Shown: positions 18,973 to 26,733 of the stretch, piece by piece | How positions within the stretch are numbered: the first letter of the stretch is position 1 | How the letters are laid out: every line of letters starts with the position of its first letter | IMG/VR virus record: IMGVR_UViG_3300017785_000314 | Location: 1 to 30,919 of that record | Source of the DNA: a virus | Lineage: Duplodnaviria > Caudoviricetes | Strand: one strand, 5' to 3' | DNA: 30,919 bases | The notes under the pieces: model-generated | What the model was told of the DNA's origin: nothing | Seen by the model: only the letters and a program-made list of their open reading frames with translations | The model's database searches: none | Program-made: the position numbers and the translations under genes

Positions 18973-20187
18973 TTATAACTCCGCTAAAACTGCTGTTTTG
19001 CCTGTGAAGTTTTCCCAGCGCTTGACGATTACGTCGCAGTATTTGGGGTCTAACTCCATTAGCCGAGCGTGACGTCCTGTCTTTTCACAGGCAATTAAGG
19101 TTGAACCGCTGCCTCCAAACAAGTCAACAACACAATCCGATCCTTTACTGCTATTTATAATCGCTTCCTCTGGCAAGCAAACAGGCTTTTGTGTTGGGTG
19201 CACATAACTACTTTGTGCGTCCCTACCTATTTTCCAAACTGAGGTTTTCGTTCTATCGCCAGCGTTGAAGTGGCTTCCTTTGCCTTCCTTCCAACCATAC
19301 AAAATAGGTTCATGCTGCGCACGATAGTCTTGCCAGCCCATTCCGGCTGACTGCTTCATCCATATAATCGTTGAGGATTTCTTAAATTGTTCAGCAAAAG
19401 TCTTTTCAAAAGCTATTTTTGGAGCCGATGCGCTATCAGGGTGGCAAACATAAATACAAGCCAATGGCTTCATTATTGCACTGTAGGTTGCAAAAACATC
19501 TCTACAAAACTGCTCAAAATCCTCTGCCGACATATCATCGTTTTTAATTGTGCCAAGGTTATTCGCACCTCGACCAGAATAAGCAACGTTGTATGGAGGG
19601 TCAGTAAATACCAAATCAGCCAGCATTCCATTCATTAGCTTTTCGCCGTCATCAATGCTAGTGCTGTCACCACACATAAGCCTATGGTTGCCTAACACCC
19701 AAACGTCACCTAGCTTAGTGATTGGCTCTGGTGGTGGTTCTGGTACTTCATCCTCGTCGGTAAGCCCGTCCGTGAGTTGGATTGGTGACAGAGCCTCGAT
19801 CTCCTCTGGCGTGAATCCAATTAGGTCAAGATCAAATCCTAAGTCACCTAGCTCGCCAAGCTCTAGCGACAGCATCTCGTTATCCCACCCAGCATTCAAT
19901 GCCAATTTATTGTCAGCAATGACATAGGCACGCTTTTTGGCATCCGACCATCCTGTGGCCACAACAACTGGTATTTCTTTGATCTTGAGCTTTTGGGCTG
20001 CGAGCGTTCTGCCGTGGCCAGCAATGATGCCGCCGTTCTCATCGACTAAGACTGGTGTTGTCCATCCCCATTCTTTAATGCTGGCTGCAATCTGGTTGAT
20101 CTGCTCGTCGCTGTGGGTGCGGCTGTTTCGTGCGTAAGGCACAAGTTTGTCGATTGACCACTGCTCGACTTTGTCTGCTGGATTCAT
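18973..20187 (-). CDS. ParB-like N-terminal domain fused to N6-adenine/N4-cytosine DNA methyltransferase (beta class)
   Basis: Likely start is ATG 20187. ParB motifs PYARNSRTHS, IIAGHGR and ADNKLA; MTase motifs TDPPY, HPTQKP and DLFGGSGSTL. Confidence 0.92.
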   Translation of the reverse strand: MNPADKVEQWSIDKLVPYARNSRTHSDEQINQIAASIKEWGWTTPVLVDENGGIIAGHGRTLAAQKLKIKEIPVVVATGWSDAKKRAYVIADNKLALNAGWDNEMLSLELGELGDLGFDLDLIGFTPEEIEALSPIQLTDGLTDEDEVPEPPPEPITKLGDVWVLGNHRLMCGDSTSIDDGEKLMNGMLADLVFTDPPYNVAYSGRGANNLGTIKNDDMSAEDFEQFCRDVFATYSAIMKPLACIYVCHPDSASAPKIAFEKTFAEQFKKSSTIIWMKQSAGMGWQDYRAQHEPILYGWKEGKGSHFNAGDRTKTSVWKIGRDAQSSYVHPTQKPVCLPEEAIINSSKGSDCVVDLFGGSGSTLIACEKTGRHARLMELDPKYCDVIVKRWENFTGKTAVLAEL

Positions 20188-20230
20188 ATAACCTTCGCGA
20201 AAGGTTGATTCTGCGTTGTTAACGCTAACC

Positions 20231-20581
20231 TTAAAGGGTAGCAATCACGATTGTACATCCGCCGCCTGATTTAATCACTCCCCTGGCTATCTCTATCTTG
20301 TCGAATTGTGAATCTGATTCATAAATGCCTGCATTTTCTAAACTGTCGAGCAGGCTTTTGAGTCTGTTGTCTAAATCTTGCTTGCGTCGATCTTTCGGGA
20401 ATATCGTGATGATGGCCTGAAGTCTGGCATCGCCAAAGTATGGGATTTTGTTCAGTAAAACGTATTCTTTGACGGTTTGTTTGTAATCTCTTGCAGCTTT
20501 AGAAAGTATTGTTCTGCCGTGGAAATTGCGCCAGTAAGCGTTTACTGATGGCGGTAACGGTAGCTGTAGCGTGGCAATCAC
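20231..20581 (-). CDS. rusA: RusA family Holliday junction resolvase
   Basis: LPLPPSVNAYWR, PKDRRKQDLDNRLKSLLDSL and the D.QFD segment. Confidence 0.92.
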   Translation of the reverse strand: MIATLQLPLPPSVNAYWRNFHGRTILSKAARDYKQTVKEYVLLNKIPYFGDARLQAIITIFPKDRRKQDLDNRLKSLLDSLENAGIYESDSQFDKIEIARGVIKSGGGCTIVIATL

Positions 20582-21171: not shown

Positions 21172-21497
21172 TTTGTTAATTTCTCAATTTGTCGGTTGCT
21201 GGCCTGCTCGGTGCGCCATGCGTCAAACCTAAGTTGTGCGCTCGTTAGCCGCCACTTTAAAAGCTCTGCCTTTTCAGTTGCTGCCCCGATTGCGTCGCAT
21301 AAGTTCTGATAATCAGGATGAGCGTATGCTTCGCGTTCTTGGGCTGACACTGCAGATTCGCCTGACTGTTTCATCAGGATTGCCTTTAGGCTCGATTTAA
21401 ACGCCTCCAGCTGCGCTAGTTCGCCCTTTGCCTTAGCGTAATGCGGTGCGTTGTCCCAAATGTACTCTATGGCAGGATGCGGTGAGTAGTCACTCAT
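21168..21497 (-). CDS. Hypothetical coiled-coil protein
   Basis: Likely start is ATG 21497, which overlaps the MTase stop. Contains AQEREAYAHPDY...FDAWRTEQASNR. Confidence 0.7.
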   Translation of the reverse strand: MSDYSPHPAIEYIWDNAPHYAKAKGELAQLEAFKSSLKAILMKQSGESAVSAQEREAYAHPDYQNLCDAIGAATEKAELLKWRLTSAQLRFDAWRTEQASNRQIEKLTK

Positions 21498-22515
21498 TTG
21501 AGTAACTCCCATGCAGTTGCTGCACATAAAGGGACTTGTCCATTACCAATGGCTTTAAGTCTGTGAACCCTAGCGGCCACCCCATAAGAAACTCGACCCA
21601 CGTTGGGTTCAATTGCCCACCAGTTTCTGTTGCCAATACCGCTTGAGTTAATCCATTCTGATGATTTTCCCGTGTTTGACGATTGGCTTTGTGTTCCGTA
21701 CTCATTGGTGTTGGCCACATTTGAACAGCACCACTTAACCCGTTTTGTTGTGTCTTTGGATTGCAAAATTGCCCTTTTTTGGCATCGTTGGCAATAGGAG
21801 TTGGCCAATATTTGTCCAGTTTGCTTTTGCAAGCCCCTTTCGTCAACATTAAATAATCCTCGTATGTGGTCACATTCCTCGCCACCATTGATATTTGACC
21901 GTCCCCCCTCCAGGCTCCCGCTTTGCTTGCAATGGGCGTTTGCCATATCGCACGTTTTTTCAATGCTTTCCGACCATTGCTGCCCCCATCTAAACCCGTT
22001 GTGTTCGGTGTGTGAAAGAATGTTTCGTTGTTCGGCTCTGATCCAAATTCTTTCACGCTGATGGTTTGCACCAATATCGGCAGCTGATACAACGCCCCAT
22101 TTTGCATCGAACCCCATCGTGGAAAGGTCTGCAAGGACAACTCCAAGTCCTCTAGTAGTGAGCATTGGGCTGTTCTCCACAAAGACGTACTGGGGTCTAA
22201 CCTCGCCAATGATCCTTGCCATGTGTTTCCACATTGAGGATTTGTTTCCTTCAATTCCTGCGCCTTTTCCTGCGGCTGAAATGTCCTGGCATGGAAAGCC
22301 TCCCGATACAACTTGCACAATTCCTCGCCACGGGTTTCCGTCAAAGGTTTGTACGTCATCCCAAATCGGGAAAGGCGGGAGAATTTTGTCATTTTGTCTA
22401 GCGCACAATACGCTTGCTGGGTATTGTTCCCACTCAACGGCACAGACGGTTCGCCATCCAAGGAGGTGTCCCCCAAGTATTCCTCCACCAGCGCCTGCGA
22501 AAAGAGCCAACTCAT
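21490..22515 (-). CDS. Overlapping +1-frame ORF: putative second MTase polypeptide (TRD-like repeats plus motif IX)
   Basis: 341 codons with no stop, inside the MTase gene. Four (W/H)-x-T-P modules and QLNPTWVEFLMGWPLGFTD, which resembles motif IX (R.LT..E..RLMGFP). Confidence 0.7.
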   Translation of the reverse strand: MSWLFSQALVEEYLGDTSLDGEPSVPLSGNNTQQAYCALDKMTKFSRLSRFGMTYKPLTETRGEELCKLYREAFHARTFQPQEKAQELKETNPQCGNTWQGSLARLDPSTSLWRTAQCSLLEDLELSLQTFPRWGSMQNGALYQLPILVQTISVKEFGSEPNNETFFHTPNTTGLDGGSNGRKALKKRAIWQTPIASKAGAWRGDGQISMVARNVTTYEDYLMLTKGACKSKLDKYWPTPIANDAKKGQFCNPKTQQNGLSGAVQMWPTPMSTEHKANRQTRENHQNGLTQAVLATETGGQLNPTWVEFLMGWPLGFTDLKPLVMDKSLYVQQLHGSYSNE

Positions 22516-22528
22516 TTAATTGTTCCAT
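21494..22528 (-). CDS. C5-cytosine DNA methyltransferase, main polypeptide (motifs I-VIII and X)
   Basis: LFAGAGG (I), GGFPCQD (IV), ENSP (VI), HQRERIW (VIII) and RLKAIGNGQVP (X). No motif IX in this frame. Confidence 0.92.
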   Translation of the reverse strand: MEQLNELALFAGAGGGILGGHLLGWRTVCAVEWEQYPASVLCARQNDKILPPFPIWDDVQTFDGNPWRGIVQVVSGGFPCQDISAAGKGAGIEGNKSSMWKHMARIIGEVRPQYVFVENSPMLTTRGLGVVLADLSTMGFDAKWGVVSAADIGANHQRERIWIRAEQRNILSHTEHNGFRWGQQWSESIEKTCDMANAHCKQSGSLEGGRSNINGGEECDHIRGLFNVDERGLQKQTGQILANSYCQRCQKRAILQSKDTTKRVKWCCSNVANTNEYGTQSQSSNTGKSSEWINSSGIGNRNWWAIEPNVGRVSYGVAARVHRLKAIGNGQVPLCAATAWELLK

Positions 22529-25678: not shown

Positions 25679-25708
25679 ATAGAAAACAATTATGTTAAGA
25701 TAGCTAAC

Positions 25709-25924
25709 ATGAATACAACAGAAATCATCCAAACATTAGGTGGAACATTTGCCGTAGCCAAGCTCTGCCGTGTCACGCCTTCAAGTGTTAGCCAATGGCG
25801 CAACAATGGTTTGCCTGGCGATAAATTAGTGTTGCTGGCAACCGAGCTTGAAAAGAAATCAGACGGCAAATGGTCAAGAAAAGAAATCCCCAACTGGCAA
25901 CAAATCTGGCCTGAGTTGCATTAG
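25709..25924 (+). CDS. Cro-like (YdaS-type) HTH regulator
   Basis: IIQTLGGTFAVAKLCRVTPSSVSQWRNNGLP...IWPEL. Divergent from the early operon. Confidence 0.85.
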   Translation: MNTTEIIQTLGGTFAVAKLCRVTPSSVSQWRNNGLPGDKLVLLATELEKKSDGKWSRKEIPNWQQIWPELH

Positions 25925-25996: not shown

Positions 25997-26025
25997 TTGA
26001 CAATCTGGAAAGACAGATACATAAT
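25997..26025 (+). promoter_or_regulatory. Near-consensus sigma70 promoter
   Basis: TTGACA (25997-26002), 17-nt spacer, CATAAT (26020-26025). Confidence 0.85.
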
Positions 26026-26030
26026 CAAAT

Positions 26031-26141
26031 TGTTGTCGTGAAGGACAATTAAGCCGTTTAAGTCTGTATCTTGATTCCACTTTCGCCTTGAAGCCGGTAG
26101 TGGGATTCCTTCACCAAGATACAGATTTAAGCGGCTTTTTT
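26031..26141 (+). ncRNA. Putative ~110-nt structured RNA / attenuator leader
   Basis: 23-bp stem 26051-26073/26115-26137 whose two deviations are both G.U. Inner stem 26074-26081/26099-26106. 5' hairpin TTGTC/GACAA. U tract at the end. Confidence 0.7.
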
Positions 26142-26511
26142 ATTGCTCAAGATAACTGTCAGGGCGCATCAGCTAATAGAGTGACCACTCGTACCCAGAA
26201 CAGGTCAGTTATACAGTTATTACTACGCTTTATCCGGTGTGACCCGCACCCCCTAGTAGAGAAATCGAACAGGATATAGACAGACTAGAGAAATCTAGTA
26301 AAACCATTTACTGTAGGTTGTGATCTTTATTACTTGCAAGGACTGCTAGTAATTTAGGGAATCTACGGGTGGGGTGAGCCGCCTGCCATAAACCTAACAA
26401 GGTACAGGTCTGTCGTAAAGGATTTATCCTCAACTACCGTCAAGTACTACGGTGGGTGGGTATAAGGGTAGGGTATCTATATTTAAAATAAACAGAGTAA
26501 GGGTTAACGCT

Positions 26512-26733
26512 ATGACAATCTGGGACTGGATGTTTGTTTTCTATTGTTCGGCAGCTCTAACCGTTGCTGCGCTTTTATTCATTCGTTGGGCAAGACCAAA
26601 GCCACAGACCTATCCAAAAGAATGGGTTTGTGATGGTTGCGGTCAAGTGTCTAGCGAATTACGAGAGGGAATGTGTGCGTATTGCACTAACTTCTACAAA
26701 CCTACGGAACATTGCCGCCAACGGGGTAAGTAG
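26512..26733 (+). CDS. Small protein with TM helix and CxxC...CxxC zinc ribbon
   Basis: Likely start is ATG 26512 (MTIWDW). Hydrophobic N-terminus, CDGC...CAYC. Converges on and overlaps the 3' end of the 26702 gene. Confidence 0.55.
   Translation: MTIWDWMFVFYCSAALTVAALLFIRWARPKPQTYPKEWVCDGCGQVSSELREGMCAYCTNFYKPTEHCRQRGK

Follow-up and report, generated by a model that had tools for sequence, protein, structure and literature searches.

The window, by which we mean the whole stretch of DNA analyzed, is a linear phage record of 30,919 nt that is 89% complete. Its structural module comprises a P22-type portal, coat and scaffold, and nearly all of its genes point leftward, with erf, ssb and an exonuclease gene lying to the left of a divergent cro-like helix-turn-helix gene (25709–25924, + strand; phrog_35, E = 2e-9; PF14549). 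This cro-like gene forms the fixed left anchor of a slot that we followed through 80 related loci, and the right anchor is a gene for a 73-amino-acid membrane/CxxC protein (26512–26733, + strand). Between the anchors lie a promoter, a leader and an element of ~320 nt (26150–26470), referred to here as RNA A, downstream of which the window has only the 73-amino-acid gene and then convergent late genes. The GC skew of the window tracked gene direction.

Searches of the 48 window ORFs against Pfam and PHROG gave no match to an initiator, helicase, primase, polymerase or integrase, and six-frame family searches of the window recovered no replication gene, in agreement with an earlier note on this DNA, which had reported no recognizable replication proteins. 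A match to a DNA-polymerase profile was rejected, as it covered an exonuclease domain only. Neither ParA nor Rop was matched among the window ORFs, a parABS cassette was absent beside the element, and the sole ParB-like domain of the window is fused to a methyltransferase (18973–20244). Elsewhere, two long ORFs overlap on the same strand in different frames (21490–22528), and both match DNA methyltransferases (phrog_363 and phrog_1008). The missing part of the genome had been supposed to hold more tail genes; in 14 gene maps of relatives with the same structural module, not all of which span the segment, the equivalent segment carried tail-fiber and tailspike-like genes as judged by eye, which agrees with that supposition. 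When genomes G001–G011 were compared with the window, the erf-cro-slot early module was found in combination with three or more different head modules (two divergent forms of phrog_283, and phrog_9953), with late genes oriented either way relative to the RNA. In G011, the large terminase is interrupted by an intein that has an HNH ORF inside (L103:10534–12732).

Promoter and leader ahead of the slot

Downstream of the cro-like gene, where the earlier note had placed a near-consensus promoter, a sigma-70-type promoter (25997–26025, + strand; 11/12 match with a 17-nt spacer) was the only site on either strand of the window to match at 11/12 or better. Comparable promoters were found upstream of the initiator gene in three other loci (L484, L487 and L490). 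With regard to antisense promoters in the element, no minus-strand match of at least 9/12 was found between positions 25700 and 28000, a threshold that weak promoters would escape.

The promoter is followed by a 110-nt leader (26032–26141, + strand) consisting of a small hairpin (loop at 26038–26045) and a long hairpin with an 8-nt bulge (26107–26114), with a U-run at its end. The bulge is complementary to the loop, and the folding energy was far stronger than that of shuffled sequences (z = –9.1 for 26030–26145). This loop/bulge complementarity (7–9 nt) was kept in 27 of the 29 distinct leaders printed, although these carried ~11 different specificity words. By analogy, the leader is inferred to be a control module like that of P4 CI/seqA. 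The same leader type was common to RNA-bearing and initiator-bearing phages; in the latter, the ATG of the initiator lies within ~15 nt after the U-run, and transcription must therefore be able to pass it. The whole region had previously been described as a single structured transcript of ~480 nt. That it is non-coding and structured was borne out by our results, whereas its first 110 nt proved to be a separate leader ending in a U-run, which had been missed.

In five loci (L004, L054, L070, L075 and L080), the first 100–270 nt after cro are taken up by an additional hairpin-rich insert that precedes the leader. Such inserts are located between tandem promoters in several loci and occur in RNA-type as well as initiator-type phages. 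In two further loci (L021 and L063), a gene of 74–90 amino acids lies between the leader and the RNA core, and the core there has a different 5′ domain.

A structured non-coding RNA and its G-tracts

The sole ORF within the element is a 63-amino-acid TTG frame with no Pfam or PHROG match, and the length difference from the window was not divisible by three in 26 of 32 homologues, which supports the earlier statement that no convincing ORF is present. Folding energy was marginal for positions 26145–26500 (z = –1.7); because it was strong only for the leader, the case for structure in RNA A rests on covariation. Cro-anchored and motif scans yielded 92 distinct cores with identities down to 39%, to which a search with a covariance model (R1) added divergent members. 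A first pattern scan had been too loose, returning mostly chance matches, and was discarded.

We applied an in-house tree-based covariation test to 55 representatives and found eight pairs that scored above all 60 tree-based null alignments, all of them canonical and nested. A 50-pair structure had 95.1% of its cells paired in the 55 homologues, with two-sided changes in 35 pairs, a value reached by none of 500 shuffles, and slid controls did not exceed 46%; as this structure was derived from the same 55 sequences, the tree-based null test is the fairer one. Rfam, which contains the plasmid motifs ARRPOF, GEBRO and PAGEV, gave no match at E ≤ 1 anywhere in the window. Taken together, the covariation, the motifs typical of RNA and the absence of any Rfam match support the suggestion made in the earlier note, for which it had proposed covariance and Rfam searches, that the region encodes a new large phage non-coding RNA.

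The 5′ domain of RNA A (26150–26200, + strand) is exchangeable, the same core being preceded by at least four forms of it, one of which is common to RNA B, described below. The multi-helix core (26233–26422, + strand) was conserved in the 55 homologues. It comprises an invariant hairpin (26236–26250), an arm with a GAAA cap that we take to be loop-E/sarcin-ricin-like (26251–26273), a long-range helix (26279/26414), a GAAA hairpin (26285–26298), a further arm (26304–26372) and a hairpin (26392–26403), all on the + strand. The + strand of the element thus carries an AGUA/GAA arm, presumably loop-E-like, together with loops that we read as GNRA and CUUG-type, and one-sided G-U changes were seen on this strand. 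Five pairings named in the earlier note were checked on 33 homologues. In the GAAA-capped hairpin at 26284–26299, four of six pairs changed on both sides; the long-range helix 26279/26414 was invariant in this set, and five of its six pairs covaried in the wider set. The hairpin at 26434–26455 is real, although its length is variable. The two remaining pairings were not upheld: 26152/26213 and 26314/26391 had 77% and 72% of cells paired, respectively, with no compensatory change, and their strands have other partners.

RNA A was distributed over phage groups of 33, 40–49 and 60 kb. A blastn search of the core against 50,697 phage records gave no match, and blastn against phage and plasmid records returned only leader or chance matches, plus one RF02932-like match in a Burkholderia replicon. 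A pattern scan of GTDB gave a single match to a 13-nt core word only, by which no host was identified. We found no description of RNA A in the literature; the 29–151-nt IMG/VR candidates of PMC10690425 may include pieces of it.

Two G-tracts lie toward the 3′ end on the + strand. An inner tract (GG-xy-G) is located at 26368–26372, and a 3′ tract (GG-xy-GG-xy-GG-N5-GGG) at 26451–26470, followed by an AT-rich run (26475–26500; 85% AT). Across the family, the 3′ tract took the form GG-xy-GG-xy-GG-N5-7-GGG and was followed by AT-rich DNA, with the inner GG-xy-G ~83 nt upstream; for 85 family members, mean AT across the 3′ end climbed from 0.40 to 0.71. The inner and 3′ tracts of every one of the 101 distinct cores with this G-tract pattern carried an identical 5-mer, in four variants (72, 25, 3 and 1 cores) with no mixed case. 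On the tree, these variants correspond to only about three independent concerted changes, and the co-change, as read from the alignments, seems to be real but thinly evidenced. Pairing between rG and dC would force the inner and 3′ units to be identical. An exact RNA complement of the unit was absent from 71/72, 3/3 and 1/1 cores of three classes, whereas 20 of 25 cores of the GGGA class hold one, so an RNA–RNA switch is possible. The inner tract is partly paired in the derived fold.

A three-tier G-quadruplex held for 92 cores but failed in the divergent L317, L450, L458 and L459, which have GG runs only, and was rejected as a conserved feature. The window itself has four GGG runs; a strict G-quadruplex of the mitochondrial CSBII type, for which a hybrid G-quadruplex comparison was taken from part of PMC6317783, is not conserved, and a two-tier form is possible. 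DnaA boxes within 250 nt downstream were found for 7 of 85 RNA A copies (2.4 expected) and were likewise rejected, six of the seven being one identical site. Fourfold-site strand skew, examined in 13 genomes, revealed no pattern, with too few co-oriented genes.

Alternation of RNAs with a replication initiator

L416, which equals the window in length, and the window-derived L081/L082 were removed before counts were made. Among the 80 loci with this cro, counted without dereplication, the slot was occupied by RNA A in 57, by a second RNA (RNA B) in 14, by a third (RNA C, Rfam RF02932) in two and by a DUF1376 initiator in one, and the remaining six end within 464 nt. In the initiator-bearing locus (L075), the DUF1376 initiator and a loader-like gene lie between the same cro/leader type and the same 73-amino-acid downstream gene as in the window. 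Conversely, none of 45 DUF1376 loci, 22 of which have this cro within 1.3 kb, matched the profiles of RNA A, B or C or the covariance model R1. Genes downstream of the RNA varied freely.

The three RNAs have no common core. RNA B (~250 nt) follows cro and leader (L008, L010 and L527–L552), shows compensatory changes by eye, was without a match in Rfam for the two loci that were tested, and has a 5′ domain that also occurs in some RNA A copies (e.g. L165). In L060 and L074, it is RNA C that fills the slot downstream of this cro, promoter and leader, and RNA-C loci scored 79–90 bits against RF02932. RNA A of the window did not match RF02932, and R1 did not find the RF02932 loci tested; by these searches, RF02932 is an alternative occupant of the slot and not a relative of RNA A. 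RF02932 elements (L553–L646) reach at least 60 nt past the 120-nt Rfam model, and they lie directly after an SF2 helicase and Toprim primase pair in eight loci and before a primase-helicase in two. Divergent RNA A copies also occur outside the slot, among lysis-like genes in L317 and after a portal-like gene in L450/L458 (both by eye). In 80 loci with the head-binding gene of the window, none of the three RNAs was found within 9 kb and this cro was not matched; as most of these loci end before the early-region slot, they say nothing on exclusion.

We examined the replication genes of 14 genomes that are at least 90% complete and carry RNA A. None matched PF07120 (DUF1376), full-length phrog_270, the DnaB-like phrog_19 or PF13730 (HTH_36) above the cut-off. 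In eight of them (G001 and G003–G009), two of which are closed by terminal repeats, no replication protein was detected in ORF scans or six-frame family searches; two weak phrog_16 matches in these eight were rejected because they fall in its methyltransferase-like part. The ORF scans covered 149 of 261 non-window clusters, 112 short or shadow ORFs being left out, and for six further genomes, 137 representatives were scanned, with 410 new clusters that include many short or shadow ORFs. Two of the 14 genomes have only a stand-alone C-terminal half of the initiator. Four 60-kb carriers of RNA A have genes for a Toprim primase and for an SF2 helicase, and G030 has a primase-helicase gene. A tyrosine integrase was absent from all 20 genomes searched. 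No full initiator was encountered among 82 of the 83 same-strand clusters (150 amino acids or longer) that lie within 3.5 kb of 214 RNA sites. No initiator was found among 41 of 72 ORFs scanned in the genome of L317 (G040, 85% complete), and an RNA-B genome (G002, 99% complete) likewise had no recognized replication protein. For the group to which the window belongs, these results uphold the earlier proposal that no initiator is phage-encoded.

At 37 of the 71 RNA-C loci and 6 of the 24 RNA-B loci, a stand-alone C-terminal half of the initiator was found no more than 3 kb away. These proteins of 114–155 amino acids (e.g. L571:2723–3097, L477:3717–4091 and L101:2597–2971) cover positions 178–266 of phrog_270, have an extra helical tail and possess their own invariant start Met. 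An AlphaFold model (pLDDT 82, pTM 0.48) gave no Foldseek match, and neither Pfam nor PDB sequences were matched; because no structural match was found, the role of the half-initiator rests on its PHROG label. Origin binding is the part that is consistently missing where RNAs A, B and C occur. Since some carriers encode a primase and helicase or a half-initiator, RNA A appears to replace origin recognition and opening, and not always the whole replication module. A protein of ~90 amino acids, winged-helix-like by eye and with no Pfam or PHROG match, often follows the RNA (L009, L015, L066 and many others) and is absent from the window; such small winged-helix-like proteins, which are common in these genomes, could be an unrecognized initiator.

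Proposed role and comparison with known systems

On the evidence of gene order and sequence, RNA A stands in for the replication initiator. We consider it likely that the element has some role in starting replication and, with less assurance, favor the view that it is a ColE1-like RNA-primed origin, unrelated in sequence to ColE1, from which phage replication would be started with host enzymes. Indirect support for the latter comes from its position in the slot of the initiator under the same promoter and leader, from the mutual exclusion with full initiators and from the two G-tracts that change together.

The following sequence of events might be envisaged. Host RNA polymerase would start at ~26032 and read through the leader, where loop–bulge pairing would set the amount of transcription that passes. 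The core would fold during transcription and present the inner G-tract, the proposed equivalent of the ColE1 rG stretch, to the template strand of the 3′ tract (26451–26460), which is C-rich and is the proposed dC target; pairing there would nucleate a persistent RNA–DNA hybrid extending into the AT-rich run, a candidate zone of unwinding and RNA-to-DNA switching. Pol I would then be primed either after trimming by RNase H or from the 3′ end of the transcript itself, and the displaced strand would load a helicase, through host PriA-type restart in the group of the window and, in other groups, with the aid of a phage half-initiator or primase/helicase. Fork movement would at first be rightward, from ~26470–26500. 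In the 60-kb carriers and G030, a primer would not strictly be needed because they have primase/helicase genes of their own.

Alternatively, RNA A might be a stand-alone ornate RNA gene, GOLLD/ROOL-like in kind, whose job is unrelated to replication start, with these phages replicating by recombination or from an unrecognized small initiator. This possibility, which we regard as unlikely, would fit the facts that the element travels with its own promoter and leader and lies among late genes in L317 and L450/L458, and Erf, exonuclease, SSB and RusA are available for recombination. It is also in line with short contigs of relatives from the RNA libraries of four lake metatranscriptome studies, which cover the 5′ half of RNA A and stop at 26155–26166 without entering the leader, and which thereby hint weakly at a discrete RNA. 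Contigs of neighboring genes occur in the same metatranscriptomes, and DNA may be their source; in the RNA runs, all shares were at most 0.12 and all came from contigs of relatives, and run X3 must contain DNA because it holds a 9.9-kb contig. However, a stand-alone RNA gene would leave the absence of such RNAs from all 45 initiator loci unexplained, would give no reason for three core-unrelated RNAs to alternate with an initiator in one slot, and would not account for the joint change of the two G-tracts; and G011, which has the same Erf and SSB genes, nevertheless keeps its initiator.

A role in replication other than priming seems improbable to us, though it agrees with several observations. 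A tethered RNA might open the duplex or replace the DNA-binding head of the initiator as a scaffold that recruits a helicase loader, with a primase making the primer. At 43 loci, RNAs B and C are followed by half-initiators without the N-terminal part; primase and helicase genes occur together with the A2 subfamily and at some RNA-C loci; and ColE1 itself works in this way without RNase H, according to the portion of PMC4412123 consulted. Nevertheless, neither a half-initiator nor a primase was found in the eight near-complete RNA-A genomes or in the window, and the half-initiator is assigned by its PHROG label.

With a promoter and a terminator-like U-run ahead of it and genes beyond it, the element would also suit the role of a cis-acting regulatory leader or antiterminator for rightward early genes. 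This appears very unlikely, given that the downstream genes vary freely, that in the window a single 73-amino-acid gene precedes convergent late genes, and that the 110-nt leader already gives control and suffices in initiator-bearing phages. Folding as single-stranded DNA (an sso or primosome-assembly-type signal) is hardly credible: covariation cannot separate it from RNA, a caveat given for plasmid motifs in the part of PMC5737381 seen, whereas the GNRA and CUUG-type loops, the loop-E-like AGUA/GAA arm and the one-sided G-U changes all lie on the + strand and a conserved promoter points into the element.

If we return to the RNA-primed origin, a broader proposition can be put forward, the case for which seems to us evenly balanced. 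Many tailed phages may start replication from interchangeable folded RNAs that behave as alleles of the initiator gene, with at least three families (RNA A, RNA B and RF02932) of different cores within one promoter–leader cassette; in the group of the window, the RNA alone, latched to the template by its matched G-tract in a ColE1-like manner without shared sequence, would take the place of the entire replication module of a phage without integrase. Replication genes cannot be recognized in many uncultured phage genomes, and RNA A would offer a concrete answer for one widespread group, in the form of a clonable 0.6-kb fragment that has a compensatory-mutation test built in. RNA-primed initiation, a feature of plasmids and of prophage maintenance, would be extended to the main replication of integrase-free phages, a function would be suggested for the orphan Rfam RNA RF02932, and new protein-free origins for vectors would come into view. 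Even if the origin idea fails, a structured RNA family of ~320 nt without an Rfam match exists across the three phage size groups.

Several known systems invite comparison. In ColE1, pairing is required between an rG stretch of the RNA and a dC stretch on the template (PMC4412123, in part), a G-rich stretch precedes the origin (PMC6317783, in part), and R-loops start replication of ColE1 as well as stable DNA replication in Escherichia coli (PMC11253446, in part). Similar to ColE1 RNA II, RNA A is associated with the absence of a full initiator protein (0/14 near-complete genomes) and with a promoter-driven structured transcript of 450–550 nt, and at the sequence level it has a pair of matching G-tracts with an A/T run after the distal one. 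The tracts of RNA A are ~83 nt apart, compared with 247 nt in ColE1 (record NC_001371, G6 runs at 928 and 1175). Unlike ColE1, which is a plasmid, RNA A belongs to integrase-free tailed phages, gave no nhmmer or covariance-model match to NC_001371 and has no Rop; no RNA I-type convergent promoter was found, though weak ones would escape, and control is apparently exerted by the CI-like leader. Judged by these comparisons, RNA A is not a member of the ColE1 family.

The leader resembles P4 CI/seqA (PMC4825925, in part) in lying ahead of the replication slot and in having an upstream word complementary to the bulge of a long hairpin. It differs in having no Rfam match and no downstream seqC-like target that tracks the specificity word, since an 11/12 repeat at 26411–26422 is invariant in 33 homologues whose leaders differ. 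The plasmid motifs ARRPOF, GEBRO and PAGEV are likewise replication-linked structured elements of 220–350 nt, and the region around ARRPOF replicates in the absence of rep; as described in the available part of PMC5737381, these motifs are plasmid-borne and from other phyla, and the window had no Rfam match. The T4 origins oriF and oriG also combine a promoter with a downstream unwinding element and form a persistent RNA–DNA hybrid in a phage; T4, unlike the RNA-A phages, has its own replisome, and the part of PMC4412123 consulted describes no conserved ornate RNA fold for these origins.

In the cluster A mycobacteriophages (Wetzel et al. 2020, PMC7157519, in part), the RNA-based prophage origins lie beside parABS, maintain a plasmid prophage and are dispensable for lytic growth, whereas the window gave no ParA match, and no other replication system was recognizable in eight near-complete RNA-A genomes. 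As for a possible sequence relationship to the Alma and LadyBird ori RNAs, the core of RNA A had no blastn match in the phage records searched. The likeness lies in genetic organization: in both cases, a non-coding transcribed region substitutes for an initiator gene, RepA-like in the mycobacteriophages, and protein and RNA versions are found among close relatives.
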